DNA of 14,340 nucleotides from Bdellovibrionales bacterium (GCA_040380025.1 JBEIJY010000040.1:1-14340); one strand, 5' to 3'; positions 1,762 to 14,142 are shown, counted from the first letter of the stretch. Notes: a model not told the origin generated them from the letters alone. Made by a program: numbers and translations.

Positions 1762-2295
1762 TCAAACAATCGAATTCGTTTTAGGGCCTGCCGAGAGCAA
1801 AACCCGCGCGGGGCGCAGAAGGCGTCCGTGCAGGGTGTAGCCCCGTTGTTGCTCCTGGACGATCGTGCCGGCCGGGAGGTCGTTCGGGAGCTGGCCCACG
1901 GCCTCATGAAGGTCGGGGTTGAAGGCCTGGCCCGAAGTCGGAATCGCAGCAACGCCCTGTTTTTCGAGGGTGGCTTTGAATTGCTGCGAGACCATTTTGA
2001 TGCCATCGACCAGGGCCGGGTCGGCATCGGGTTTCGCGAACAGGAGCGCGCGCTCGAAGTTGTCGAGGATCTCGAGCAAATCGAGAGCCGTGTTCTTCCA
2101 GCCGAATTTCGCGGCTTCTTGTTGCTCGCGGATTGCGCGCTTTTTGAAGTTCTCGAATTCGGCGTAGAGATAAATGTGCTTTTGCTCGGCGTCCTTCAGG
2201 CGCTTTTCGAGCTCGGCCACGGGGGTGGCCTGGGCTTCGGGCACTACGGATTCCGGAGCGGTTTGCTCGGGTGCGGGATTGGGTTGATCTTGCAT
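1762..2295 (-). CDS. grpE: Nucleotide exchange factor GrpE (177 aa)
   Basis: Motifs YLYAEFENFKKR, LLEILDNFERAL, FNPDLHEA and GYTLHGRLLRPARV; lies directly upstream of dnaK. Start taken at MQDQPN (ATG 2295) because the longer ORF start runs through a repeat element. Confidence 0.97.
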   Translation of the reverse strand: MQDQPNPAPEQTAPESVVPEAQATPVAELEKRLKDAEQKHIYLYAEFENFKKRAIREQQEAAKFGWKNTALDLLEILDNFERALLFAKPDADPALVDGIKMVSQQFKATLEKQGVAAIPTSGQAFNPDLHEAVGQLPNDLPAGTIVQEQQRGYTLHGRLLRPARVLLSAGPKTNSIV

Positions 2296-2305
2296 GATCC
2301 GCTCA

Positions 2306-2335
2306 ATATGGTGCGGGTTTGCGAGTTGGCAAGGG
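2306..2335 (-). promoter_or_regulatory. Putative sigma32/RpoH-type heat-shock promoter of grpE-dnaK
   Basis: Minus strand CCCTTG(CC)-N14-CACCATAT matches the CTTGAA-N13/14-CCCCATNT consensus and spacing, directly upstream of grpE. Confidence 0.55.
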
Positions 2336-2340
2336 GGCGA

Positions 2341-2570
2341 GTTGGAATTTTTTGCAATCGCACGCTTTGGCTGTTCTTTTCTAGGCGGGAAATGGGGAAA
2401 GACCCTTGGAATAATTCCGTTTTTACCTCCGAGCCGCGTCGTGCGGCCTCGCTTTCGCGTTCGCCTACGCGTCCTGCTCCGGCGTGCGATGCACCACACG
2501 CCTCGGCTCATGCCTCGGCGTCACGCGCTCGCGAGAGACAGCCAAAGCGTACCGGTTGAAAAATTCCAGC
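2341..2570. repeat. Palindromic repeat element, copy 1 (arms 2341-2374 and 2538-2570; shared core 2426-2537)
   Basis: GTTGGAATTTTTTGCAATCGCACGCTTTGGCTGT is an imperfect reverse complement of ACAGCCAAAGCGTACCGGTTGAAAAATTCCAGC. The core CCTCCGAGCCGCGTCGTGCGGCCTCGCT...CTCGCGAGAG aligns with 12671-12780 over its length and with the ends of 6999-7052. Confidence 0.9.
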
Positions 2571-2581
2571 GAGCCTCTCGC

Positions 2582-5500
2582 TCACTTCAACAGCCGCGAG
2601 CAGGTGTCGCGATCGAGCTCCTGAAGCCGCGTCTTCACCGCCTCGGGCGAGTGCTCCCCGGCGAACGCCGACCGCGCCTCGGGGCTCATCGCCTCGACCT
2701 CGGCCTTGACCTCGAGGAATCGCTTGCCCGAGATCTCGCCATGCTGAAGAAGCTCATGCGCGACCTTGTATTCGAGCGTCCAGTTCTCGACGATGAAGTC
2801 GCGCGCCCGTTCGCGTGCAATCGAAAGTTCCCGGCTGGCGAAGTCCTGAAACAGCTTCTGCTGGGACTCATTAAAGACCGCATTCCCCTGATCATCGAGC
2901 TTCGCACCCATGAGCTCGGGCACGAGGCCCCACTGGGTCGCGGCACGGGTCAAGAGTCTGCGCTCTTCCAAAAGATCTCCCGCCTGGCCCGAGTTCATCT
3001 CGCGGCCCACCAAAAGCTCGGCCTCCGAGCCCGCGACCAGAGTCGCAAGCCGCGCGCGCAGGTCGCTCAGGGTGAAATTCGTCTTGAAGTTCGGGATGTC
3101 CTCGTAGCGCGCATATCCCAGGTAATGATCCGCGGGTACGATTGTCAGGTGCGCAAGCTTGCGCCCCGAGGTAGCCGGGTTGTTCAAAATGGCATGCCCC
3201 GCCTCATGAAAAGCCGTGGCGTAGGCATCAACGAGGCGAATCTGCTTGATGAATTTTGCCGATCGCGTGAAGTCCGACTCGACCCGCGTGATCTCGGCAC
3301 CATCCTGATGCACCGAAACGATGAGCTTTGCGAGCGTTTCATCGGGGGTGACCTCATAAAACGGCTGGGTCGGGATTTTGGTTTCGAGCGAGAGCTTCAC
3401 GAGTGCTCGGTTGCTCATGGTCGCTTTCGTGAAGTCCACCTCGAACACTCCTTGCGAGGCGGCCGAGCCGAGTGTGGTGTTCACAAAATTGATCACCGAG
3501 CGCGCGCCCTCGGTCGAAGAGTAGGTGAGGCGGCTCACCGTCTCGATGAAGTTCCCATCGTACAGAATCCGCACGGGTTGCTTTGCCTCGACCCGCGCAA
3601 TCCACTCGTTGACGAGTTTTTTCACGATCGCGGCTTTCGTGGTCGAAACCGGTGGTTCGGTCAGGACCACCGCACCCAGGCGCCCGACAAATGCGGGACT
3701 GAGCCCGCTTTCGCGAAGAAGCGCGCGCGCTCTTTCTTCAGAGCTGTAGCGGCTCCAGATCGCGCGGAGCATGTCGTCCTGAGTGTTCCCGGCAAAAACC
3801 TTCTCGGCCTCGTTGCCGGTGAAGATGAACACATAGTCCTTGAGAGGATAGGATTTTTTGGTGACCGGGCTGACCCAAACGCCATCATCCAAAATGGAGT
3901 AAAGGTATTTTCCGATTTCCTCTTTGGCGTTCTTGTCATTCCCGCCCGCGTTCCCCATCTCGTCAAACAGAATGACGCCTTTCGGGTAGCGCTGAAGAAA
4001 ACGCTCGAACTGCCCGGGCTGGTCGGATCCCACATAGCCCACCGAGGACTGAAAAATGTTCGAGAGGTCTTTCACGCTGCTGACCTGACCCATCTCGAGC
4101 TTGCAGAGGTATTCGGCCGACCCGAAGCGCACCATCGCAAGGGCCCGCGCCATCTCGGTCTTGCCGTTTCCGGTCATTCCGAGGGCGTAGATCGAAACAG
4201 GCTTCGGCGATCCGGCGTCGACCGCATTTTTGCGGATGCTCTCGGCGAGTTTTTTGGCATAAAAGCTCTGCCCGTACACGCGCGCGTTCAGCTCGGCTTC
4301 GAGGGTCTTCAGGATTTGCCGCTCGGAGGGGTCAAAGAGCGCGTTCTCGTAAGCGAGCTTCGGACCGAGCAGGGTCATCGACTGCGAGCGTTCGTTCACG
4401 GCCTGAAACTGCACAAAGCTCGTTCCCGCCATCGGGGGGAGGGTCTTGATCGCGATTTTTTTGGCCGGTCCGAATTCCTTGATGTGCGCATCGTACACGC
4501 GCGCAATGTGGTTCCGGATGTTCCGCTCAAGCTCGCGAACGCCGTAAACGGGATCATAGCTCTCGTTCACGATCGTATTCACGAAGGTCTCATCGACCGT
4601 CACCTCGCCCAGCCCCTGGTCGCGGTAGGTCTCAATCTCGTCGCGCACCTTGATGCGGGCGATGTCGAGCGCGGTTTCTTTCAGAATCGGCGCAACGAGG
4701 ATCATCTCGTCCATACGCGAGAGGATCTCGGGCTTCAGCACCTCGTCAGCGCGGGCGAAGGATTCCTGCTGGATGAAGGCCTCTTTGATGTCGTTTGCCG
4801 AAACCGTAAGAAGCCGCTTTTGGATTTCTTGCAAGGTCGCGGTCTTCACGAACTCGGGCGGGAAGAACTTTGTGGCACCCTTGTTCGAGGTGAAGAGCCA
4901 GAGCACGCGGCCGGTCGTGCGCATTCTGCCGTCGCCCGGAATGAAGGAGCCGGTGTCGATGATCTCCATCAGGCGCTCGACTTGCTGGGGGTGCATTTTA
5001 TCGAGCTCATCGACCAGAATGATGCTCGAGCCCTGCCCGGGGCCATCGAAGTGATTCGCAAGAAGGCCCTTGTTTTTGTCGCTTCCCAAGTAGCCCGATT
5101 TCGGCCCGAAAAGATAAAACCCGTTGTCGTCGCTCTTCAGTTGGTTTCCGTCGATTTTGAGCATGCGCGTGTGCGTGCCGTAAAAATAATGCACCAGCCG
5201 CGAGGGGATCAGGGATTTTCCGGTTCCGGTGGTGCCGACGATCACGGCGGCGCGGGTCTTTTTGCCTTTTGCCGTCATGGTGGCGGCAAAGAGGTTCACG
5301 ATGCGATCAATCGTCGCGTCCTGGCCCTTCACGTCCGACTTGATCTTGGCGCGGAGCTCGTCCATTTTGGCGATGAATCCTGCGCGGTCATGGGGCACGA
5401 CCGGAAGCCGCGCTTTTTTTGCGGCGAGTTCGTAAAACACCGCAAGCGTGAGTTCGGGGGCGCGACCGTTTGCAAGGCGGTTTGCGTAAATCGCGGCATC

Positions 5501-6814
5501 TTGCAAAAGCCTGATCGGAGCATCGGGACGCTTCAGATCGGGCATGAGATCCCCCGCGAGATCAATCGCGGCTGTGATGACCTCGTCTGATACCTTGAGC
5601 CGGTACGTGCGTTCGATGTCGGCCAGCGCCGTTTGCTTGATGAGCCCGAAGGTGGCGGCCTCGTCGAGCTCCTGGATTTGAATTGGCGTGATGCGGGTCG
5701 CGAATTGTTCTTCGGCAAGAAGCGAGAACGCGGCTTGTTTGGAGCCCGAGACCAGAATCATCGGGAAGATTCCCTCGTCGATCAGGGTCTTCAGCGTATC
5801 AAGCTGCGAGGGCAGAAGCTGGTGCGCGTTCTCGATGACGAGAATGGGGTTCGTCTCGGTCGCGCGGCCCACCTCGCGAAGGGACCGCACATACCAGTCC
5901 AAAAGACGCGCAAGGCCGCCGGATGACATATCGCGACCGATGCTTGCGATTTTTTGCGGGTTCGTGACGATCACAATCGAGTTCTTCAGCTGTTCGGAGT
6001 GGACTCCGGCCGGAAGATCGCCCTGAAGGAGGCGTGCTGCGATTCCCTCGACCACGGACGACTTGCCAACGCCAGTCTCGCCCAAAATCACGGGCGCTTT
6101 GCCCTTCAAGCGCAAGAGCACATCGATTGCGGTGTTGATCTCGGTGTCGCGTGCGACGATCGGAGTGAATTTGCCTTCGCGCTGGCGCTTTTGAATGTCC
6201 TCGGTCAGGACCACGAGCGCTCCTTGCTTCAGCTGCTCGGCTTTGTCGCTCTTCCAGGCGCCCAAAAAGCGCTGAAGGCGGATCTCTGAAATCCCCGCTT
6301 CTCGCACGACAGAAGGAGCCGCATTCGGAGTCGTGACGAGGTCTTTCAGTTCGGGGCGGGGAGTCGGGGGTACGGGGCGGGATTTGGCGGCCGCATAGCC
6401 CCGTTTTGCCGCGTCGATCATGCTCTCGATCTCGGGGTGATCGGGGTAGGAGGTTCGAAGCTCCGAGATCAGCCACTGAAAGAACACGATTTCATCGGAT
6501 ACCGAGATGCTTCCGAGCACATCCGTCCAGGCGATGATCGTCCGCGAGTCGAGCACCACGGCCTGGCTTTCGTGCAGGAGCTGTTTTCGGGCGAGGTCGT
6601 ACACCTCACGAAAATTCCGCCCCTTCAACGAGCGAATCTGCGCGAGCACATGGTCGGGATCGTTCGCGTACGAGGTGTGGCTTAAAAACTCGATCGTGGA
6701 GTTCAGTTGATCCGGATTCAGCTGGGCCAGGGCCCGTGAGCCCGAACCGGTTGAAAGGACGCTGATGGCTAAAAAAACGAAAGCGGCAAAACGAAGTTTG
6801 CGGACCGTGTTCAT
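2582..6814 (-). CDS. Signal-peptide-bearing triple AAA+ (ClpA/B-type D1-D2-D2') ATPase fused to a C-terminal FtsH-like M41 metallopeptidase (1410 aa)
   Basis: Strong SD GGAGGGGG before ATG 6814; N-terminus MNTVRKLRFAAFVFLAISVLSTGSGSRALA|Q. Walker A motifs GETGVGKS, GTTGTGKS and GMTGNGKT; Clp D2 motifs VKGQD/VYGQS, GYLG/GYVG, PEILSRMD/PAFVGRL, GVREL/GARSV. C-terminal ATAFHEAGHAIL...TIVP...LGYA...AGSEAE...SGQAGDL...WGL matches the FtsH protease domain pattern. Confidence 0.9.
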   Translation of the reverse strand: MNTVRKLRFAAFVFLAISVLSTGSGSRALAQLNPDQLNSTIEFLSHTSYANDPDHVLAQIRSLKGRNFREVYDLARKQLLHESQAVVLDSRTIIAWTDVLGSISVSDEIVFFQWLISELRTSYPDHPEIESMIDAAKRGYAAAKSRPVPPTPRPELKDLVTTPNAAPSVVREAGISEIRLQRFLGAWKSDKAEQLKQGALVVLTEDIQKRQREGKFTPIVARDTEINTAIDVLLRLKGKAPVILGETGVGKSSVVEGIAARLLQGDLPAGVHSEQLKNSIVIVTNPQKIASIGRDMSSGGLARLLDWYVRSLREVGRATETNPILVIENAHQLLPSQLDTLKTLIDEGIFPMILVSGSKQAAFSLLAEEQFATRITPIQIQELDEAATFGLIKQTALADIERTYRLKVSDEVITAAIDLAGDLMPDLKRPDAPIRLLQDAAIYANRLANGRAPELTLAVFYELAAKKARLPVVPHDRAGFIAKMDELRAKIKSDVKGQDATIDRIVNLFAATMTAKGKKTRAAVIVGTTGTGKSLIPSRLVHYFYGTHTRMLKIDGNQLKSDDNGFYLFGPKSGYLGSDKNKGLLANHFDGPGQGSSIILVDELDKMHPQQVERLMEIIDTGSFIPGDGRMRTTGRVLWLFTSNKGATKFFPPEFVKTATLQEIQKRLLTVSANDIKEAFIQQESFARADEVLKPEILSRMDEMILVAPILKETALDIARIKVRDEIETYRDQGLGEVTVDETFVNTIVNESYDPVYGVRELERNIRNHIARVYDAHIKEFGPAKKIAIKTLPPMAGTSFVQFQAVNERSQSMTLLGPKLAYENALFDPSERQILKTLEAELNARVYGQSFYAKKLAESIRKNAVDAGSPKPVSIYALGMTGNGKTEMARALAMVRFGSAEYLCKLEMGQVSSVKDLSNIFQSSVGYVGSDQPGQFERFLQRYPKGVILFDEMGNAGGNDKNAKEEIGKYLYSILDDGVWVSPVTKKSYPLKDYVFIFTGNEAEKVFAGNTQDDMLRAIWSRYSSEERARALLRESGLSPAFVGRLGAVVLTEPPVSTTKAAIVKKLVNEWIARVEAKQPVRILYDGNFIETVSRLTYSSTEGARSVINFVNTTLGSAASQGVFEVDFTKATMSNRALVKLSLETKIPTQPFYEVTPDETLAKLIVSVHQDGAEITRVESDFTRSAKFIKQIRLVDAYATAFHEAGHAILNNPATSGRKLAHLTIVPADHYLGYARYEDIPNFKTNFTLSDLRARLATLVAGSEAELLVGREMNSGQAGDLLEERRLLTRAATQWGLVPELMGAKLDDQGNAVFNESQQKLFQDFASRELSIARERARDFIVENWTLEYKVAHELLQHGEISGKRFLEVKAEVEAMSPEARSAFAGEHSPEAVKTRLQELDRDTCSRLLK

Positions 6815-6942
6815 GGAGTTCCCCCTCCGGTCAGCGACATTAGTAGCGCTCGGGGGAAAATTCAAAAGGTTTGGTTCACGGCGGTGTGAATTTTTTCTGA
6901 TAAACAAATTGAATTGAAAAACCCCCAAGTCGTTCTCTCTGT

Positions 6943-7128
6943 CTGTGCTTGATTTGGTTTCTGGATGCGGGAGTGGGCGGAAAATCATTCGGGTTTCGCC
7001 TCCGAGCCGCGTCCTGCGGCCTCGCTTGCGGCTGTCCTGCCTCGCGAGAGTCGGCGAAACAGGAATGATTCTCCACCCCCTCCCTCATCCAGTCTCATGA
7101 ATCAAGCGCAGTCAATCAGGCCAGTTTG
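6943..7128. repeat. Palindromic repeat element, copy 2 (arms 6943-7000 and 7053-7111; short core 6999-7052)
   Basis: CTGGATGCGGGAGTGGGCGGAAAATCATTCGGGTTTCGCC pairs imperfectly with GGCGAAACAGGAATGATTCTCCACCCCCTCCCTCATCCAG. The core begins CCTCCGAGCCGCGTCCTGCGGCCTCGCT and ends CTCGCGAGAGTCGG. The right end GCGCAGTCAATCAGGCCAGTTTG nearly matches the right end of copy 3. Confidence 0.9.
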
Positions 7129-7137
7129 GATTTGCCT

Positions 7138-8274
7138 CTACGAGAGCTCCCGCACGAGCGAATCGCTCATCGCGAATCCCCGCGCCGTCGCCCGAAGATG
7201 CCCCGGGCTTGTGGGGTGGGGCTCAAGGAGTCCGTGCGCAAGAAGCGTCTCGGACTTCTTCTTTTGCGCGTCGGTTTTCAGCCAGGAATCGGGGAAGCCT
7301 TCTGACAGGCGGATCGCCAGCATCCAGCGTTCGAGCTCGATTTGCGAATCGCTCAAGGTCTCGGTCCATTCGACGGGAAGGGTTTTTTCTTCGAGGAGCG
7401 CGCGCGCATACCGATGGAGCGACGAGAAGTTCTTGAACCGCGCACGGGACTCGCTCGAGTACGAGTGCGCCGACGGCCCGAACGACAAATAGGAGCCACC
7501 GGTCCAGTACACGAGGTTGTGTCGGGCACGGCCTCCGGGGCGCGCGAAGTTCGAGATCTCGTAGTGTTCAAACCCGCGTGCCTGTAAAAACGAGTCAATG
7601 AGGAGCAGGTGCTCGAGCTGTTCTTCTTCGCGCGGGAGCTCGCGGTACATGGCGTGGTGGGGCGGAAGAGTCAGAAGGTACACCGAGAGGTGCTGAATCG
7701 GAAACTCCGCGAGACGAATCAGGTGGGATTCGAGATCGGCAAGGCTCTGCCCGGGCACGCCACAGAGGAGATCGGTGGAAACATTCGAAAACCCCGAGCG
7801 AAACACCGTCTCGAGCGCCGTAAGCGCCCCTTGCTCGGAATGAACGCGTCCCAAACGAAGGAGAGTTTCGTCTTTTAAGCTCTGCACACCCATGCTGACG
7901 CGATTGATTCCAAAAGAGCGATAGGCCTTGAAGTTCTCGTACGAGATCGAAGAGGGGTTCGCTTCCATCGTCCATTCGATCGACGAAGAGAGCGGGGCAT
8001 GGGTAAGAAGAGTCTGAATGATCCGCTCCATCGAGGCGGGAGGGGTCATGCTCGGGGTCCCGCCTCCAAAAAAGATCGTCTCGATCGGGAGCGAGAGCAA
8101 GCCATCGCGCCCGCGAAGGTCAATTTCTTGTCGGAGCGCCTGCTCGAAAAGGTCCGGGTCGGAGGGTTTGGTCTTCTCGCGGCCGATCGAATAAAAGTCG
8201 CAGTAATGGCACTTGGCCTCGCAAAACGGAAAATGAAAATACAGCGATCGGGCGGGAGCGAGAGGGGAAAGCAT
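7138..8274 (-). CDS. hemW: Radical SAM heme chaperone HemW (HemN-like)
   Basis: SLYFHFPFCEAKCHYCDF (CxxxCxxC), FFGGGTPS, TMEANP, RVSMGVQS, YEISNFA and HNLVYW; HNxxYW is typical of HemW. The location upstream of grpE-dnaK is a common context. Confidence 0.9.
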   Translation of the reverse strand: MLSPLAPARSLYFHFPFCEAKCHYCDFYSIGREKTKPSDPDLFEQALRQEIDLRGRDGLLSLPIETIFFGGGTPSMTPPASMERIIQTLLTHAPLSSSIEWTMEANPSSISYENFKAYRSFGINRVSMGVQSLKDETLLRLGRVHSEQGALTALETVFRSGFSNVSTDLLCGVPGQSLADLESHLIRLAEFPIQHLSVYLLTLPPHHAMYRELPREEEQLEHLLLIDSFLQARGFEHYEISNFARPGGRARHNLVYWTGGSYLSFGPSAHSYSSESRARFKNFSSLHRYARALLEEKTLPVEWTETLSDSQIELERWMLAIRLSEGFPDSWLKTDAQKKKSETLLAHGLLEPHPTSPGHLRATARGFAMSDSLVRELS

Positions 8275-8309: not shown

Positions 8310-8368
8310 ACCAATGGCGTGAAATCGGCGGTTTTTGCGGGAATTCCGGCGAAAAATCAATTTCTTTT

Positions 8369-8396
8369 TTGCCTTCTGTCGAAGCTTCGATACAAT
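8369..8396 (+). promoter_or_regulatory. Possible sigma70 promoter of the Cys/Gly-rich protein gene
   Basis: TTGCCT-N16-TACAAT, about 65 nt upstream of ATG 8461. Confidence 0.35.
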
Positions 8397-8460
8397 TTTG
8401 ATTGGCCCCCCTCCAGAAAAGGACTTCTGGAGCCGAAATGACATACTGAGGAGCTCGCTC

Positions 8461-10356
8461 ATGTCAAAGACCTTGAAAAGCACGATGCTGACCATCTTCG
8501 CCTTCCCTCTCTTTTTGTTTCTGGGTGTCCCGGTGGCGCAGGCGCAGAAAGAGGTGTTTAGTTGCCCGGATGGAGGGTGCTCTGTTTTCAAAGCTGGAGA
8601 TTTTTGCAAGTCAGGTGAAGAATATCGGTACATAGAGGGATGCGTTATAAAAAAGAAGAAATATGTCTTGAAGCATCGGCGCGCAACCCCGCAAGAGTTG
8701 ATCCAAGCTGGAATATATAAAGAAAATGTAACCATCGTTGATGTCGGCAAGACTACTCCGGGGCAAGGAGATAACGACAACGAAAATGGCGGTAGCGGCA
8801 ATGAAAGCTCCTGCCGGTGCCATTACTCGTGGTGTCACTACCTATGTCGGAAGAGTTCCACTGGAGTGAGTGGTGACTATTGTGAGCACCTGGAAGCAAT
8901 TGGGGATATGAAAGAGGATCGATTAAAAGATCTTAAGGGTGCCCAAAAGCCAGTAGATAGAAATAGCGATTATCTTTCGGAATGCCGAGATGCGTGCGCT
9001 ACACTTGCGCTCGACGTGAACAGCTCATGTTATTATTCAAGAAATAAAAATATTAATGAGCCAAGTGAATTTTGTCTTTATTTAACTGATACTGAAAAGG
9101 CTCAATTAAATAGTGGTTGCAACAACGTGACTGGCACAAAATCCAATAGCGATCTGTGTAATGCGATTTTGAATCATTCAAAATGCGCAAAAGAGCTCTC
9201 GGCCCTTACCACTGACAACTTCGATTGCGGTAACAATCAAGCAACCTATGCTGTGATTGATTATGCGAAAGAAAAGGTTCGAATCGAGGCTGATTATTTG
9301 TTCATTCGGGATCTAGAGGCAAGAACGAAGTGTCCATTTGATAAAGATAATCTTGAAAAAGATATTAAAACCTACACCGAAGACAAGTTCTCGGTTTCTT
9401 GTGTCCAGCAACTTGCCGAGGAGTGTTTTAATCAAACTGGCGGGAATGGTTCAGGAGACTGCGTCGACTGCGGCAACGGCGGAGGATACGACGAGTACGA
9501 AGAGATCATCCGCAGACGAGAGATCACAGAGATCTTGCGGCAACAGGGATATTGCACCTACGGTCCGTGTCCGTACGGGGTGAGCAAAGCGGCGCAGATC
9601 ATTGGCGCGATCGGCTCGATCGGGGTACCGATCGGCCTTGGAGTCATGAATCTCGTCATGAACCAGCGTGGGCTTGATGCGTGCCTTCAGGCGTACAATA
9701 TGCAGGTCCAGCAGGCGACGGCGGTTGGACTTCCCCCGCAAAATCCGATGTGCGGGATGGGCGGATTCGGCATGGGCGGTTTTGGTGGCGGCTGGGGCGG
9801 CGGATTTCCTGGCATTGGTGGCGGAATCAACATCGGCGGCGGCATCGGATTCCCCGGAATCGGCATCGGCGGCGGCATTGGGGTCGGCGGCGGTGGCGGA
9901 ATCTATGGCTATCCTGGCGGCGGCGGCGGTTGGGGCGGAGGGTTCCCGGGCGGTGGCATGTACGGATATCCGAACGTGAACATGTATGGAATTCCGACGA
10001 TCGGTGGTGGCGGCGGGATGAACATTCAGCAGCAGCTCTATGACAATCAGCTTCGCATGCAGGAGCTTGCCATGATGAACATGGTGAACCAGACCGGAGC
10101 CGGCATGGGGTATAACAACAACATGTACATGCCGGGGTACGGGACTGCTCCGTACTACGGCATGGGGAATATGGGGTACGGCTACCCAGGAATGTACTCG
10201 GGCGTGAATGCGGGTGCTGGAGTGAGCTTCAACGCAGGGGCTGGATTCAATATCGGCGCGGGTGCCGGAGCCGGCGGCGGATGGAATCCGTACGGCGGTT
10301 ATGGTGGCTACGGCGGAAACTGCGGTTACGGAGTCTCGTACCTGGGCGGGTGTTAA
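8461..10356 (+). CDS. Secreted hypothetical protein with a Cys-rich N-terminal domain and a Gly/Tyr/Met-rich low-complexity C-terminus (631 aa)
   Basis: SD GAGGAG at 8448-8453; signal peptide MSKTLKSTMLTIFAFPLFLFLGVPVAQA|Q; 28 Cys by hand count; GGF/GGI/GYPG repeats at the C-terminus. No family recognised. Confidence 0.8.
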   Translation: MSKTLKSTMLTIFAFPLFLFLGVPVAQAQKEVFSCPDGGCSVFKAGDFCKSGEEYRYIEGCVIKKKKYVLKHRRATPQELIQAGIYKENVTIVDVGKTTPGQGDNDNENGGSGNESSCRCHYSWCHYLCRKSSTGVSGDYCEHLEAIGDMKEDRLKDLKGAQKPVDRNSDYLSECRDACATLALDVNSSCYYSRNKNINEPSEFCLYLTDTEKAQLNSGCNNVTGTKSNSDLCNAILNHSKCAKELSALTTDNFDCGNNQATYAVIDYAKEKVRIEADYLFIRDLEARTKCPFDKDNLEKDIKTYTEDKFSVSCVQQLAEECFNQTGGNGSGDCVDCGNGGGYDEYEEIIRRREITEILRQQGYCTYGPCPYGVSKAAQIIGAIGSIGVPIGLGVMNLVMNQRGLDACLQAYNMQVQQATAVGLPPQNPMCGMGGFGMGGFGGGWGGGFPGIGGGINIGGGIGFPGIGIGGGIGVGGGGGIYGYPGGGGGWGGGFPGGGMYGYPNVNMYGIPTIGGGGGMNIQQQLYDNQLRMQELAMMNMVNQTGAGMGYNNNMYMPGYGTAPYYGMGNMGYGYPGMYSGVNAGAGVSFNAGAGFNIGAGAGAGGGWNPYGGYGGYGGNCGYGVSYLGGC

Positions 10357-12598: not shown

Positions 12599-12855
12599 CA
12601 AACTGGCCTACTTGACTGCGCATGATTTCAAAGCCCGGACGGCGAAGTGACCGAAATAAAAATGGTTTGGCCTCCGAGCCGGGTCGTCCGGCCTCGCTCT
12701 CGGTTCGCCTACGCATCCTGCTCCGGCGTGCTTCGCACCACACGCCTCGGCCTGCCTTGGCGTCCTGGCTCGCGAGAGTCGGCCAAACCATTTTTGTTTC
12801 GGGCACTTTGCCGTTCGGGCTTCCATAATTATGCGCAGTCAAGTAGGCCAGTTTG
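12599..12855. repeat. Palindromic repeat element (MITE-like or structured-RNA-like), copy 3, most intact (arms 12599-12672 and 12781-12855)
   Basis: About 75-bp near-perfect inverted arms starting CAAACTGGCCTACTTGACTGCGCAT and ending ATGCGCAGTCAAGTAGGCCAGTTTG; the 110-nt core is shared with copy 1. Confidence 0.92.
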
Positions 12856-14065: not shown

Positions 14066-14142
14066 GGGCCATTAGCTCAGCTGGTTAGAGCGGTCCGCTC
14101 ATAACGGATTGGTCGCTGGTTCAAGTCCGGCATGGCCCACCA
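14066..14142 (+). tRNA. tRNA with CAT anticodon, most likely tRNA-Ile2 (lysidine-modified)
   Basis: Acceptor stem GGGCCAT/ATGGCCC, D arm AGCTCAGCTGGTTAGAGC, anticodon arm GTCCG-CTCATAA-CGGAT, T arm GGTTCAAGTCC and encoded CCA. It has a paired 1:72 position and lacks the three G-C pairs of initiator tRNA; it resembles E. coli ileX (TTGGTCGCTGGTTCAAGTCC). Confidence 0.95.

Follow-up and report, generated by a model that had tools for sequence, protein, structure and literature searches.

A single-chain Clp/Hsp100-M41 protein with a predicted Sec signal peptide in a Bdellovibrionales bacterium: a candidate exported ATP-dependent protease

A gene on the minus strand of a 14,340-nucleotide stretch of DNA from a Bdellovibrionales bacterium (GCA_040380025.1 JBEIJY010000040.1:1-14340; the whole stretch is referred to as the window) encodes a protein of 1410 amino acids, in which three Clp-type AAA+ modules are preceded by a predicted Sec signal peptide and followed by an FtsH-type M41 zinc peptidase domain on the same polypeptide. 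The interpretation put forward here is that this gene, located at positions 2582..6814, codes for a self-contained Clp/Hsp100-M41 ATP-dependent metalloprotease with a cleavable Sec signal, which is both active and exported; a probability of roughly 0.55 is assigned to this joint claim. Taken separately, an active single-chain Clp-M41 protease is very probable, its activity being predicted by analogy with Clp/Hsp100 proteins and FtsH, and genuine export, as judged from the N-terminal sequence, is fairly likely. To our knowledge, the characterised bacterial ATP-dependent proteases, namely ClpXP/ClpAP, HslUV, Lon and FtsH, combine one motor family with one peptidase family and act in or at the cytoplasm. 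The family described here departs from this scheme on both counts, with a multi-tier Hsp100 motor welded to an FtsH peptidase and an export signal placed in front. If active, such proteins would constitute a natural experiment on the number of rings per unfoldase and on the role of a dead ring, and a compact degradation machine encoded by a single gene. A survey of the full-text literature, which mostly excluded subscription journals, yielded no description of the architecture or of exported bacterial AAA+ proteases, in agreement with an earlier note on this DNA (the original prediction), whose author did not recognise the architecture from any characterised protein.

A single open frame on the minus strand spans 2582..6988 and corresponds to a long frame of 1468 amino acids. 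The gene starts at the ATG at 6814, which is backed by an identical database gene call (P0002, 1410 amino acids), and a Shine-Dalgarno-like GGAGG, read off the sequence at 6824..6828, is situated 9 nucleotides 5' of it; the complete coding sequence, consisting of 1410 codons and the stop codon, thus occupies 2582..6814. One gene with this extent had been proposed in the original prediction, and each of the motifs listed for it was located by computation at the position given there, all on the minus strand: the three Walker A motifs GETGVGKS (residues 245-252, 6059-6082), GTTGTGKS (residues 527-534, 5213-5236) and GMTGNGKT (residues 879-886, 4157-4180), the HEAGH motif (residues 1203-1207, 3194-3208) and GQAGDL, which begins at residue 1276. 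The frame also contains PIVARDTEI, RPDAPIRLLQDA, GYLG, ILVDELDK, GYVG and ILFDEMG.

The proposed succession of three Clp-type AAA+ modules and an M41 domain on one chain is borne out by Pfam, NCBIfam and PDB searches. In Pfam, whose coordinates follow the numbering of the 1468-amino acid frame and not that of the 1410-amino acid protein, AAA_2 is matched with 110.8 bits in two stretches, one of which (931-1105) corresponds to module 3; AAA is matched as well, AAA_22/AAA_16 lie over the first module at approximately 277-440, ClpB_D2-small is found at 770-829 in the second module only, and Peptidase_M41 (PF01434) covers 1257-1401 with 51.5 bits, compared to a gathering cut-off of 29.9. The expected domain string had been AAA, AAA_lid_9, two units of AAA_2 plus ClpB_D2-small, and Peptidase_M41. 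Of these, AAA, both copies of AAA_2 and Peptidase_M41 were recovered, whereas no Pfam match to AAA_lid_9 was obtained in the protein and ClpB_D2-small was not matched in modules 1 and 3; the small subdomains of the latter two modules are nevertheless covered by PDB alignments. The NCBIfam models of ClpB, ClpV and ClpA score 223 to 229 bits, far below their cut-offs of 885 to 1232, and the FtsH model TIGR01241 reaches 45.8 bits compared to a cut-off of 600, with profile positions 418-564, i.e. the protease tail only, being matched.

Searches of the PDB with phmmer assign each part of the chain to its closest structural relative. Module 1 (residues 211-480, 5375..6184) is a D1-type AAA+ module with a small subdomain; a query comprising residues 211-560 matches best to D1 of ClpE (E 6.6e-20) and also to D1 of ClpB, ClpA and ClpC, and the alignment continues into D2. 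Around 58 ClpE residues between D1 and D2 (chain residues 342-400) are skipped in this alignment, which confirms the absence of a middle domain. Module 2 (residues 481-829, 4328..5374), a D2-type AAA_2 module that includes a D2-small subdomain and a β-rich insert at approximately residues 786-819, has its best match in D2 of ClpB (E 3e-19). Module 3 (residues 830-1136, 3407..4327) is a second D2-type AAA_2 module with a small subdomain, and a query of residues 830-1190 retrieves D2 of ClpC (E 1.3e-19). Modules 2 and 3 share 22% identity, so that they do not derive from a recent duplication. A β-rich connector (residues 1137-1181, 3272..3406; strands at model residues 927-971), for which no family match was obtained, links module 3 to the M41 domain (residues 1182-1410, 2585..3271). 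The best PDB match of residues 1196-1383 is Thermus thermophilus FtsH (2dhr, E 7.5e-9), and 4eiw and Yme1 match the tail likewise with E values of about 8e-9. Residues 286-476 of 2dhr align with the M41 tail in such a way that HEAGH and the Asp of GQAGDL (GxxxD) coincide with the zinc ligands of FtsH; the third ligand is Asp1280 (2975-2977). The assignment of the C-terminal 220 or so residues to M41, with the third ligand in SGQAGDL, was therefore correct.

As noted before, neither a ClpP-docking loop of the IGF/IGL type nor a middle coiled coil is present, the latter as seen in the ClpE alignment. In a scan of 12 orthologues, the tripeptide [ILMV]G[FL] was not found within any AAA module; its only occurrences are in signal peptides and at one non-conserved site. 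The precomputed Pfam list of P0002 does not include Clp_N (PF02861), though this family is listed for ClpB matches. In its place, residues 31-210 (6185..6724) form a six-helix, HEAT/ARM-like α-solenoid (approximately residues 34-145), followed by a two-helix linker, in an AlphaFold2 (AF2) model of residues 30-212 with a mean predicted local distance difference test score (pLDDT) of 84.7. A Foldseek search of this domain against the PDB yielded nothing at E <= 0.001, the best match having an E value of 0.089, and the Z scores of up to 9.7 to HEAT/ARM repeats obtained with VIA-align do not exceed those of generic matches between helical repeats. For residues 211-1410, the AF2 model, built from an alignment of 36 sequences, has a mean pLDDT of 87.2 and a predicted template modelling score (pTM) of 0.56, and contains two small β-rich inserts, one after module 2 and the other separating module 3 from the protease. 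In Foldseek, the model is matched best by the two-tier protomers of ClpC, ClpA and ClpB (E about 1e-30, TMt 0.75-0.79).

Which of the three AAA+ tiers are likely to work as motors can be read from their catalytic residues, which were compared in the 12 orthologues and, family-wide, in 110 representatives of at least 1000 amino acids aligned to a profile. The Walker A motif of module 1 is kept in the orthologues as G[ED]xGVGK[STN]; its Walker B motif, however, has degenerated to [DE]-x-A-[HN] (LVIENAH in the window protein), the catalytic Glu thus being lost, and a KYRG-type pore-loop aromatic was not found in module 1 of any of the 12. The D1 tier of the window protein and its close relatives is accordingly less likely to be a third motor than a ring that serves nucleotide binding or assembly. 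The three-tier unfoldase of the original prediction therefore holds with regard to the three Clp-type modules, but its first tier is probably non-hydrolysing. Module 1 is present in 72 of the 110 representatives and carries a canonical DE in its Walker B motif in 46 of these 72; a dead D1 is hence a trait of the subclade to which the window protein belongs and not of the whole family.

Modules 2 and 3 present a different picture. Module 2 combines the Walker A motif GTTGTGKS and the pore loop GYLG with the Walker B motif ILVDELDK, sensor-1 N644, the Arg finger R700 and sensor-2 R760; in module 3, GMTGNGKT and GYVG are accompanied by sensor-1 N1001, the Arg finger R1045, sensor-2 R1105 and a Walker B motif, ILFDEMG, which is followed by a seven-residue insert. 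Walker A, the Walker B Glu, GY[ILV]G, the sensor-1 Asn, the Arg finger and the sensor-2 Arg are kept in both modules of the 12 orthologues, and the pore-loop Tyr is invariant in module 2 (Y575) and found in at least 90% of the sequences in module 3 (Y927). Among the 110 representatives, module 2 retains the Walker A Lys in 108, the Walker B Glu in 105, the sensor-1 Asn in 106, the Arg finger in 105 and the sensor-2 Arg in 103; the corresponding numbers for module 3 are 110, 107 (with the Walker B Asp kept in 104), 108, 109 and 109, and module 3 is, by these counts, the best conserved motor. The H, E, H and D of the M41 zinc site are kept in 105, 104, 104 and 104 representatives, respectively, and are invariant in all 36 sequences of a smaller set. 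As far as conservation can tell, the active sites of modules 2, 3 and M41 are under selection. This bears on the idea that the protein is exported with AAA+ rings that no longer burn ATP and merely serve as an oligomerisation scaffold or passive channel for an energy-independent M41 peptidase. Such a scenario would remove the problem of an ATP supply outside the cytoplasm, and the D1 ring of the window protein indeed lacks its catalytic Glu already; yet the catalytic Glu, Arg fingers and sensors of modules 2 and 3 are kept in 103 to 110 of the 110 representatives at an overall identity of 26-35%, which is the signature of a working ATPase and renders this explanation improbable.

By analogy with the hexamers of Clp/Hsp100 proteins and FtsH, six chains of an active Clp-M41 protease would stack into four rings, namely D1, two D2 rings and the protease. 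The HEAT/ARM-like N-domains on top might capture the substrate, and the D1 ring would bind nucleotide, here probably without hydrolysing it, and thereby provide a tier for assembly or gating. The polypeptide would be pulled through the axial pore by the two D2-type rings, which are equipped with Tyr pore loops, the Walker B Glu, Arg fingers and sensors, and the threaded chain would be cut in the M41 ring by the zinc site formed by HEAGH and Asp1280. Coupling to ClpP, an adaptor or DnaK would be neither needed nor possible. If the predicted signal peptide is functional, the mature protein would act outside the cytoplasm of the producer, i.e. in the periplasm, on the cell surface or further away.

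The signal peptide (residues 1-30, 6725..6814) was identified by scripted sequence rules, which consider a hydrophobic core within the first 50 residues, the charge of the n-region and a small-x-small motif. The window protein starts with MNTVRKLRF-AAFVFLAISVL-STGSGSRALA-Q and thus contains a positively charged n-region (R5, K6 and R8), the hydrophobic core FAAFVFLAISVL and an ALA motif directly before Q31. The n-h-c layout is found in 11 of the 12 orthologues without conservation of the sequence itself, the exception being P0005, whose N-terminus is cut. Over 19 residues, the mean hydropathy of the core is 1.5-2.1 in nine of these 12 proteins; it is lower in P0005 and in P0008, and the maximum of P0015 lies outside its N-terminus. 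A second hydrophobic segment with a 19-residue hydropathy above 1.6 was not found elsewhere in the proteins. Among 100 family representatives that start with Met and have at least 1000 amino acids, 82 possess a hydrophobic core, and these have a net-positive n-region in 79 cases, a small-x-small motif behind the core in 78 and flank charges that place the N-terminus inside and the remainder outside in 79. Three or four members (P0039, P0064, P0120 and perhaps P0164) carry a lipobox-like L/V-x-G/A-C motif, and none of 15 ordinary ClpB/ClpV controls passes the same core threshold. A Sec-type signal peptide is therefore predicted to be conserved family-wide, and the positive-inside charges and the lipoboxes suggest translocation of most of the protein across the membrane and not its retention by an anchor on the cytoplasmic side. 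The original prediction was right about the single-chain Clp-M41 architecture; however, the Sec-type signal was missed, and with it the reading shifts from a cytosolic protein to one predicted to be exported.

Several observations weigh against an active and exported protease. The bacterial periplasm is not known to offer a supply of ATP, and an exported AAA+ motor would therefore be without an obvious fuel. The export call itself derives from simple scripted rules and not from SignalP or experiment; 18 of the 100 representatives fall below the hydrophobicity threshold, and several are borderline or have start codons that may be miscalled. With regard to the motor, the Walker B Asp of module 2 is replaced by Asn in 79 of the 110 representatives, and the pore-loop columns contain Tyr in 36 and Phe in 5 of them for module 2 and Tyr in 39 and Phe in 15 for module 3, the alignment being unsure at such divergence. 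In one of the 12 orthologues, P0015, there is a gap of 12 residues at the module 3 pore loop. Finally, the pTM of the AF2 monomer is just 0.56, and the mutual placement of its four parts is not fixed by the model.

The question of fuel is avoided if the protein is a quality-control protease in the cytoplasm or tethered to the inner membrane, whose hydrophobic segment is an uncleaved anchor and which would be a functional analogue of FtsH with a Clp motor. In favour of this view, the ATP on which the motor depends is found in the cytoplasm, grpE and dnaK follow directly downstream of the gene in the window, and FtsH is itself a membrane-anchored protein. However, there is just one hydrophobic segment, the cores are short, and the charges flanking the core orient the N-terminus to the inside and the remainder to the outside in 79 of the 82 representatives. 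The small-x-small motifs behind the core, present in 78 of these 82, and the lipoboxes of the three or four members make sense for exported proteins only, and the vicinity of grpE-dnaK is not retained at the loci L011 and L012 of relatives. A cytoplasmic or tethered protease is thus considered unlikely, and export of an active Clp-M41 protease is preferred. A more specific, tentative version of this preferred reading is that Bdellovibrio-like bacteria export a complete ATP-driven unfoldase-protease, which possibly acts in the periplasm, or at the surface or in the interior of another cell, uses the leaked or resident ATP of that cell and digests foreign folded proteins. This would be the first ATP-dependent protease of the bacterial extracytoplasmic space and a counterpart of the exported Hsp100 machines of eukaryotic parasites. 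More generally, an exported and ATP-driven protease would challenge the textbook view of the inner membrane as the limit of energy-dependent proteolysis and would point to unrecognised extracellular protein processing by Bdellovibrio-like bacteria.

A functional analogue is HSP101 of the Plasmodium translocon PTEX, a ClpB-type AAA+ unfoldase that has a signal peptide and works in an extracytoplasmic compartment. HSP101 (6e10, 6e11) is among the PDB matches of all three modules with E values of 6e-10 to 2e-16; however, it is no closer in sequence than other Hsp100 proteins, the analogy is a functional one only, and it differs from the window protein in being eukaryotic, in having two tiers and no protease, and in being part of a membrane translocon.

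Among characterised proteases, the M41 AAA proteases FtsH, Yme1 and AFG3L2 (2dhr, 4eiw, 6az0) likewise carry an AAA+ motor and M41 on a single chain and use HEXXH and a downstream Asp as zinc ligands, with the protease aligning over approximately 190 residues. In contrast to FtsH, in which a single AAA+ module of the classic clade is adjacent to the protease, the window protein contains three modules, and a Clp D2-type AAA_2 module (E 1.3e-19) occupies this position. Furthermore, FtsH has two transmembrane helices that flank a periplasmic domain, whereas the only hydrophobic segment of the window protein is the short one at the N-terminus, read here as a signal peptide. ClpA, ClpC, ClpE, ClpB and Hsp104 share the D1-D2 order with the window protein, whose direct junction between D1 and D2 resembles that of ClpA. 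The D2 hallmarks of class I Clp/Hsp100 proteins, i.e. a GYVG-type pore loop, a sensor-1 Asn, an Arg finger and a GAR-type sensor-2, are common to both, and the fold of the protomer is matched at the TMt values given above. The differences consist of an extra D2 module, a covalently attached protease instead of docking to ClpP, an N-domain of the HEAT/ARM-like solenoid type without Clp_N, the lack of a middle domain, the loss of the D1 catalytic Glu in the subclade of the window protein and the presence of a signal peptide. The equivalog models of ClpB (TIGR03346) and ClpA score 229 bits compared to 1232 and 223 compared to 993, respectively. The ESM Atlas points to shorter, apparently cytosolic fusions of a Clp-type AAA (AAA_2, ClpB_D2-small) to Peptidase_M41, of 526-943 amino acids and with one or two modules, in other phyla (Bacteroidota, Campylobacterota and Bacillota) and in large phages; these are leads only, but they indicate that the joining of the two domains is not unique to the family of the window protein. 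It is the multi-tier build together with the predicted export signal that sets this family apart.

The gene belongs to a family of some size. A word-index protein search found 13 close relatives of 1152-1425 amino acids with 46-72% identity, 11 of which are full length (1401-1425 amino acids, 46-69% identity), and below these 13 the list falls straight to ordinary ClpB and ClpV proteins with E values of about 1e-32. A second search of this kind with P0058 as the query added six further relatives and no new taxon names, and a scan of genome contigs with narrow search patterns recovered three true relatives only. When module 3 and M41 (581 amino acids) were compared with 1.84 billion cluster representatives using HMMER, 141 proteins were obtained at E <= 1e-30, most of which have 1100-1600 amino acids and contain the matched region at their C-terminus. 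Of 99 listed representatives with a Met start and at least 1000 amino acids, 91 possess HEXXH within the last 420 residues; three P-loops are found in 58, two in 33, and four and one in 4 each. Some shorter members combine a single P-loop with a signal-like start (e.g. P0149, P0150 and P0102), and relatives with two rings from other families of the same order have different N-domains and are approximately 30% identical. Judged by these sequences, the family is a larger one and comprises two-tier and one-tier forms in addition to the three-tier build. In a FastTree phylogeny of module 3 and M41, for which 106 of 110 rows were kept, the D1-bearing form (71 rows) is scattered, and well-supported branches force at least eight changes, although some of the rows without D1 may be truncated proteins. 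The names encountered among family members are Oligoflexia, Bdellovibrionales and 'Deltaproteobacteria' metagenome-assembled genomes, and most cluster members are without a name.

Three proteins of approximately 1020-1030 amino acids (P0167, P0171 and P0173) have a signal-like start and three P-loops without HEXXH, and may be exported three-ring Clp-like proteins that lack the protease. P0111, named SUMF1/EgtB/PvdO family enzyme by NCBI, has 2327 amino acids; its Clp-M41 unit ends at approximately residue 1323, and around 1000 residues lie beyond it. A PADLOC search gave generic ClpB-type AAA matches only (PDC-M37B and DolB), with the M41 part unmatched, and in PHROGs an 'ATP-dependent protease' family matches modules 1 and 2 only. 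Among viral contigs, the best 80 loci are ordinary ClpA/B-like genes that match modules 1 and 2, and none of them reaches M41.

The window stems from a metagenome-assembled genome of 53 contigs, which raises the question of whether a clp gene was joined to an ftsH fragment by the assembly. The same end-to-end architecture is, however, found in independent assemblies of several sources. In the public run that covers the gene best, X1, overlapping contigs and unitigs tile positions 2459-7000 evenly at a depth of 29-33, every domain junction being spanned and no joint being visible within the gene, and the M41 tail shares just 23-24% identity with the two FtsH proteins that the genome encodes. 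A misassembly of this kind, which had been named as a risk beforehand, is ruled out by these data, with the relatives and cluster representatives pointing in the same direction, and the residual chance of an artefact is negligible. The small-share runs X2, X4 and X7 contain short pieces at low depth only, and no RNA run is among the sequencing runs listed for the gene.

In the window, the Clp-M41 gene is located between a radical-SAM gene (7138-8274, minus strand) and grpE-dnaK, directly upstream of grpE; in many bacteria, hrcA lies at the place upstream of grpE-dnaK. This position, together with the ClpB-like AAA modules, could be taken to mean that the protein is a heat-shock disaggregase, which cooperates with the neighbouring GrpE and DnaK as ClpB does and clears by means of M41 what cannot be refolded. 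However, the middle coiled-coil domain, the element by which ClpB docks to DnaK, is missing, a signal peptide is present, and the genome has a ClpB of its own. Moreover, the CIRCE operator consensus has no match in the window with up to three mismatches, and the Clp-M41 gene is separated from grpE by a hairpin with a T-run, which overlaps its stop codon, and by a repeat element. The neighbours also differ between relatives: L011 and L012 are surrounded by wholly different genes (encoding PhoH/PIN, a LigT-like protein and unknown proteins), no conserved neighbour is common to the window and L011, L012, L013, L017, L018 or L019, and the two-ring loci have no neighbour in common with L011 and L012. 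A role as a disaggregase is therefore very improbable compared to that of an exported protease. Promoter and terminator scans of the window gave nothing above shuffled expectation.

The three-ring form is present in four of the 17 genomes of the genus. Of 401 genomes drawn from across the phylum, 33, which belong to many families, contain a match to the M41 tail at E <= 1e-15; no such match was obtained in 100 genomes of the best-sampled family. Since the genome containing the window also encodes two FtsH proteins, ClpP, ClpB (871-amino acid frame), ClpA and ClpX, the gene is an addition to the normal set of proteases and not a replacement for any of them. It is accessory and patchy in its distribution.

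The repeat between the Clp-M41 gene and grpE is a dispersed palindromic, MITE/REP-like element with terminal inverted repeats. A full copy is located at 12599-12855, and partial copies at 2349-2563 and 6983-7128 flank the Clp-M41 gene on both sides; the element recurs between rpsA and a gene for an MFS transporter and has 60 matches in the genome, many of which lie at the ends of contigs. Within the repeat, at 2400-2553, run X1 has a depth of 556-1094, compared to approximately 30 over the Clp-M41 gene. The listed grpE frame (1762-2511, minus strand) runs into the repeat at 2407-2507, so that the true start of grpE is probably located further downstream than 2511. A stretch of low GC content (0.445) at 8335-10356 on the plus strand contains a frame of 673 amino acids without a Pfam match; its start at Met43 resembles a signal peptide, its middle part is rich in Cys, one of its segments is membrane-like, and its long low-complexity tail is rich in Gly, Tyr, Met and Asn. 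The Rfam scan matched only a tRNA; a tRNA-Met (CAT) is encoded at 14066-14142 on the plus strand, after the MFS transporter gene.

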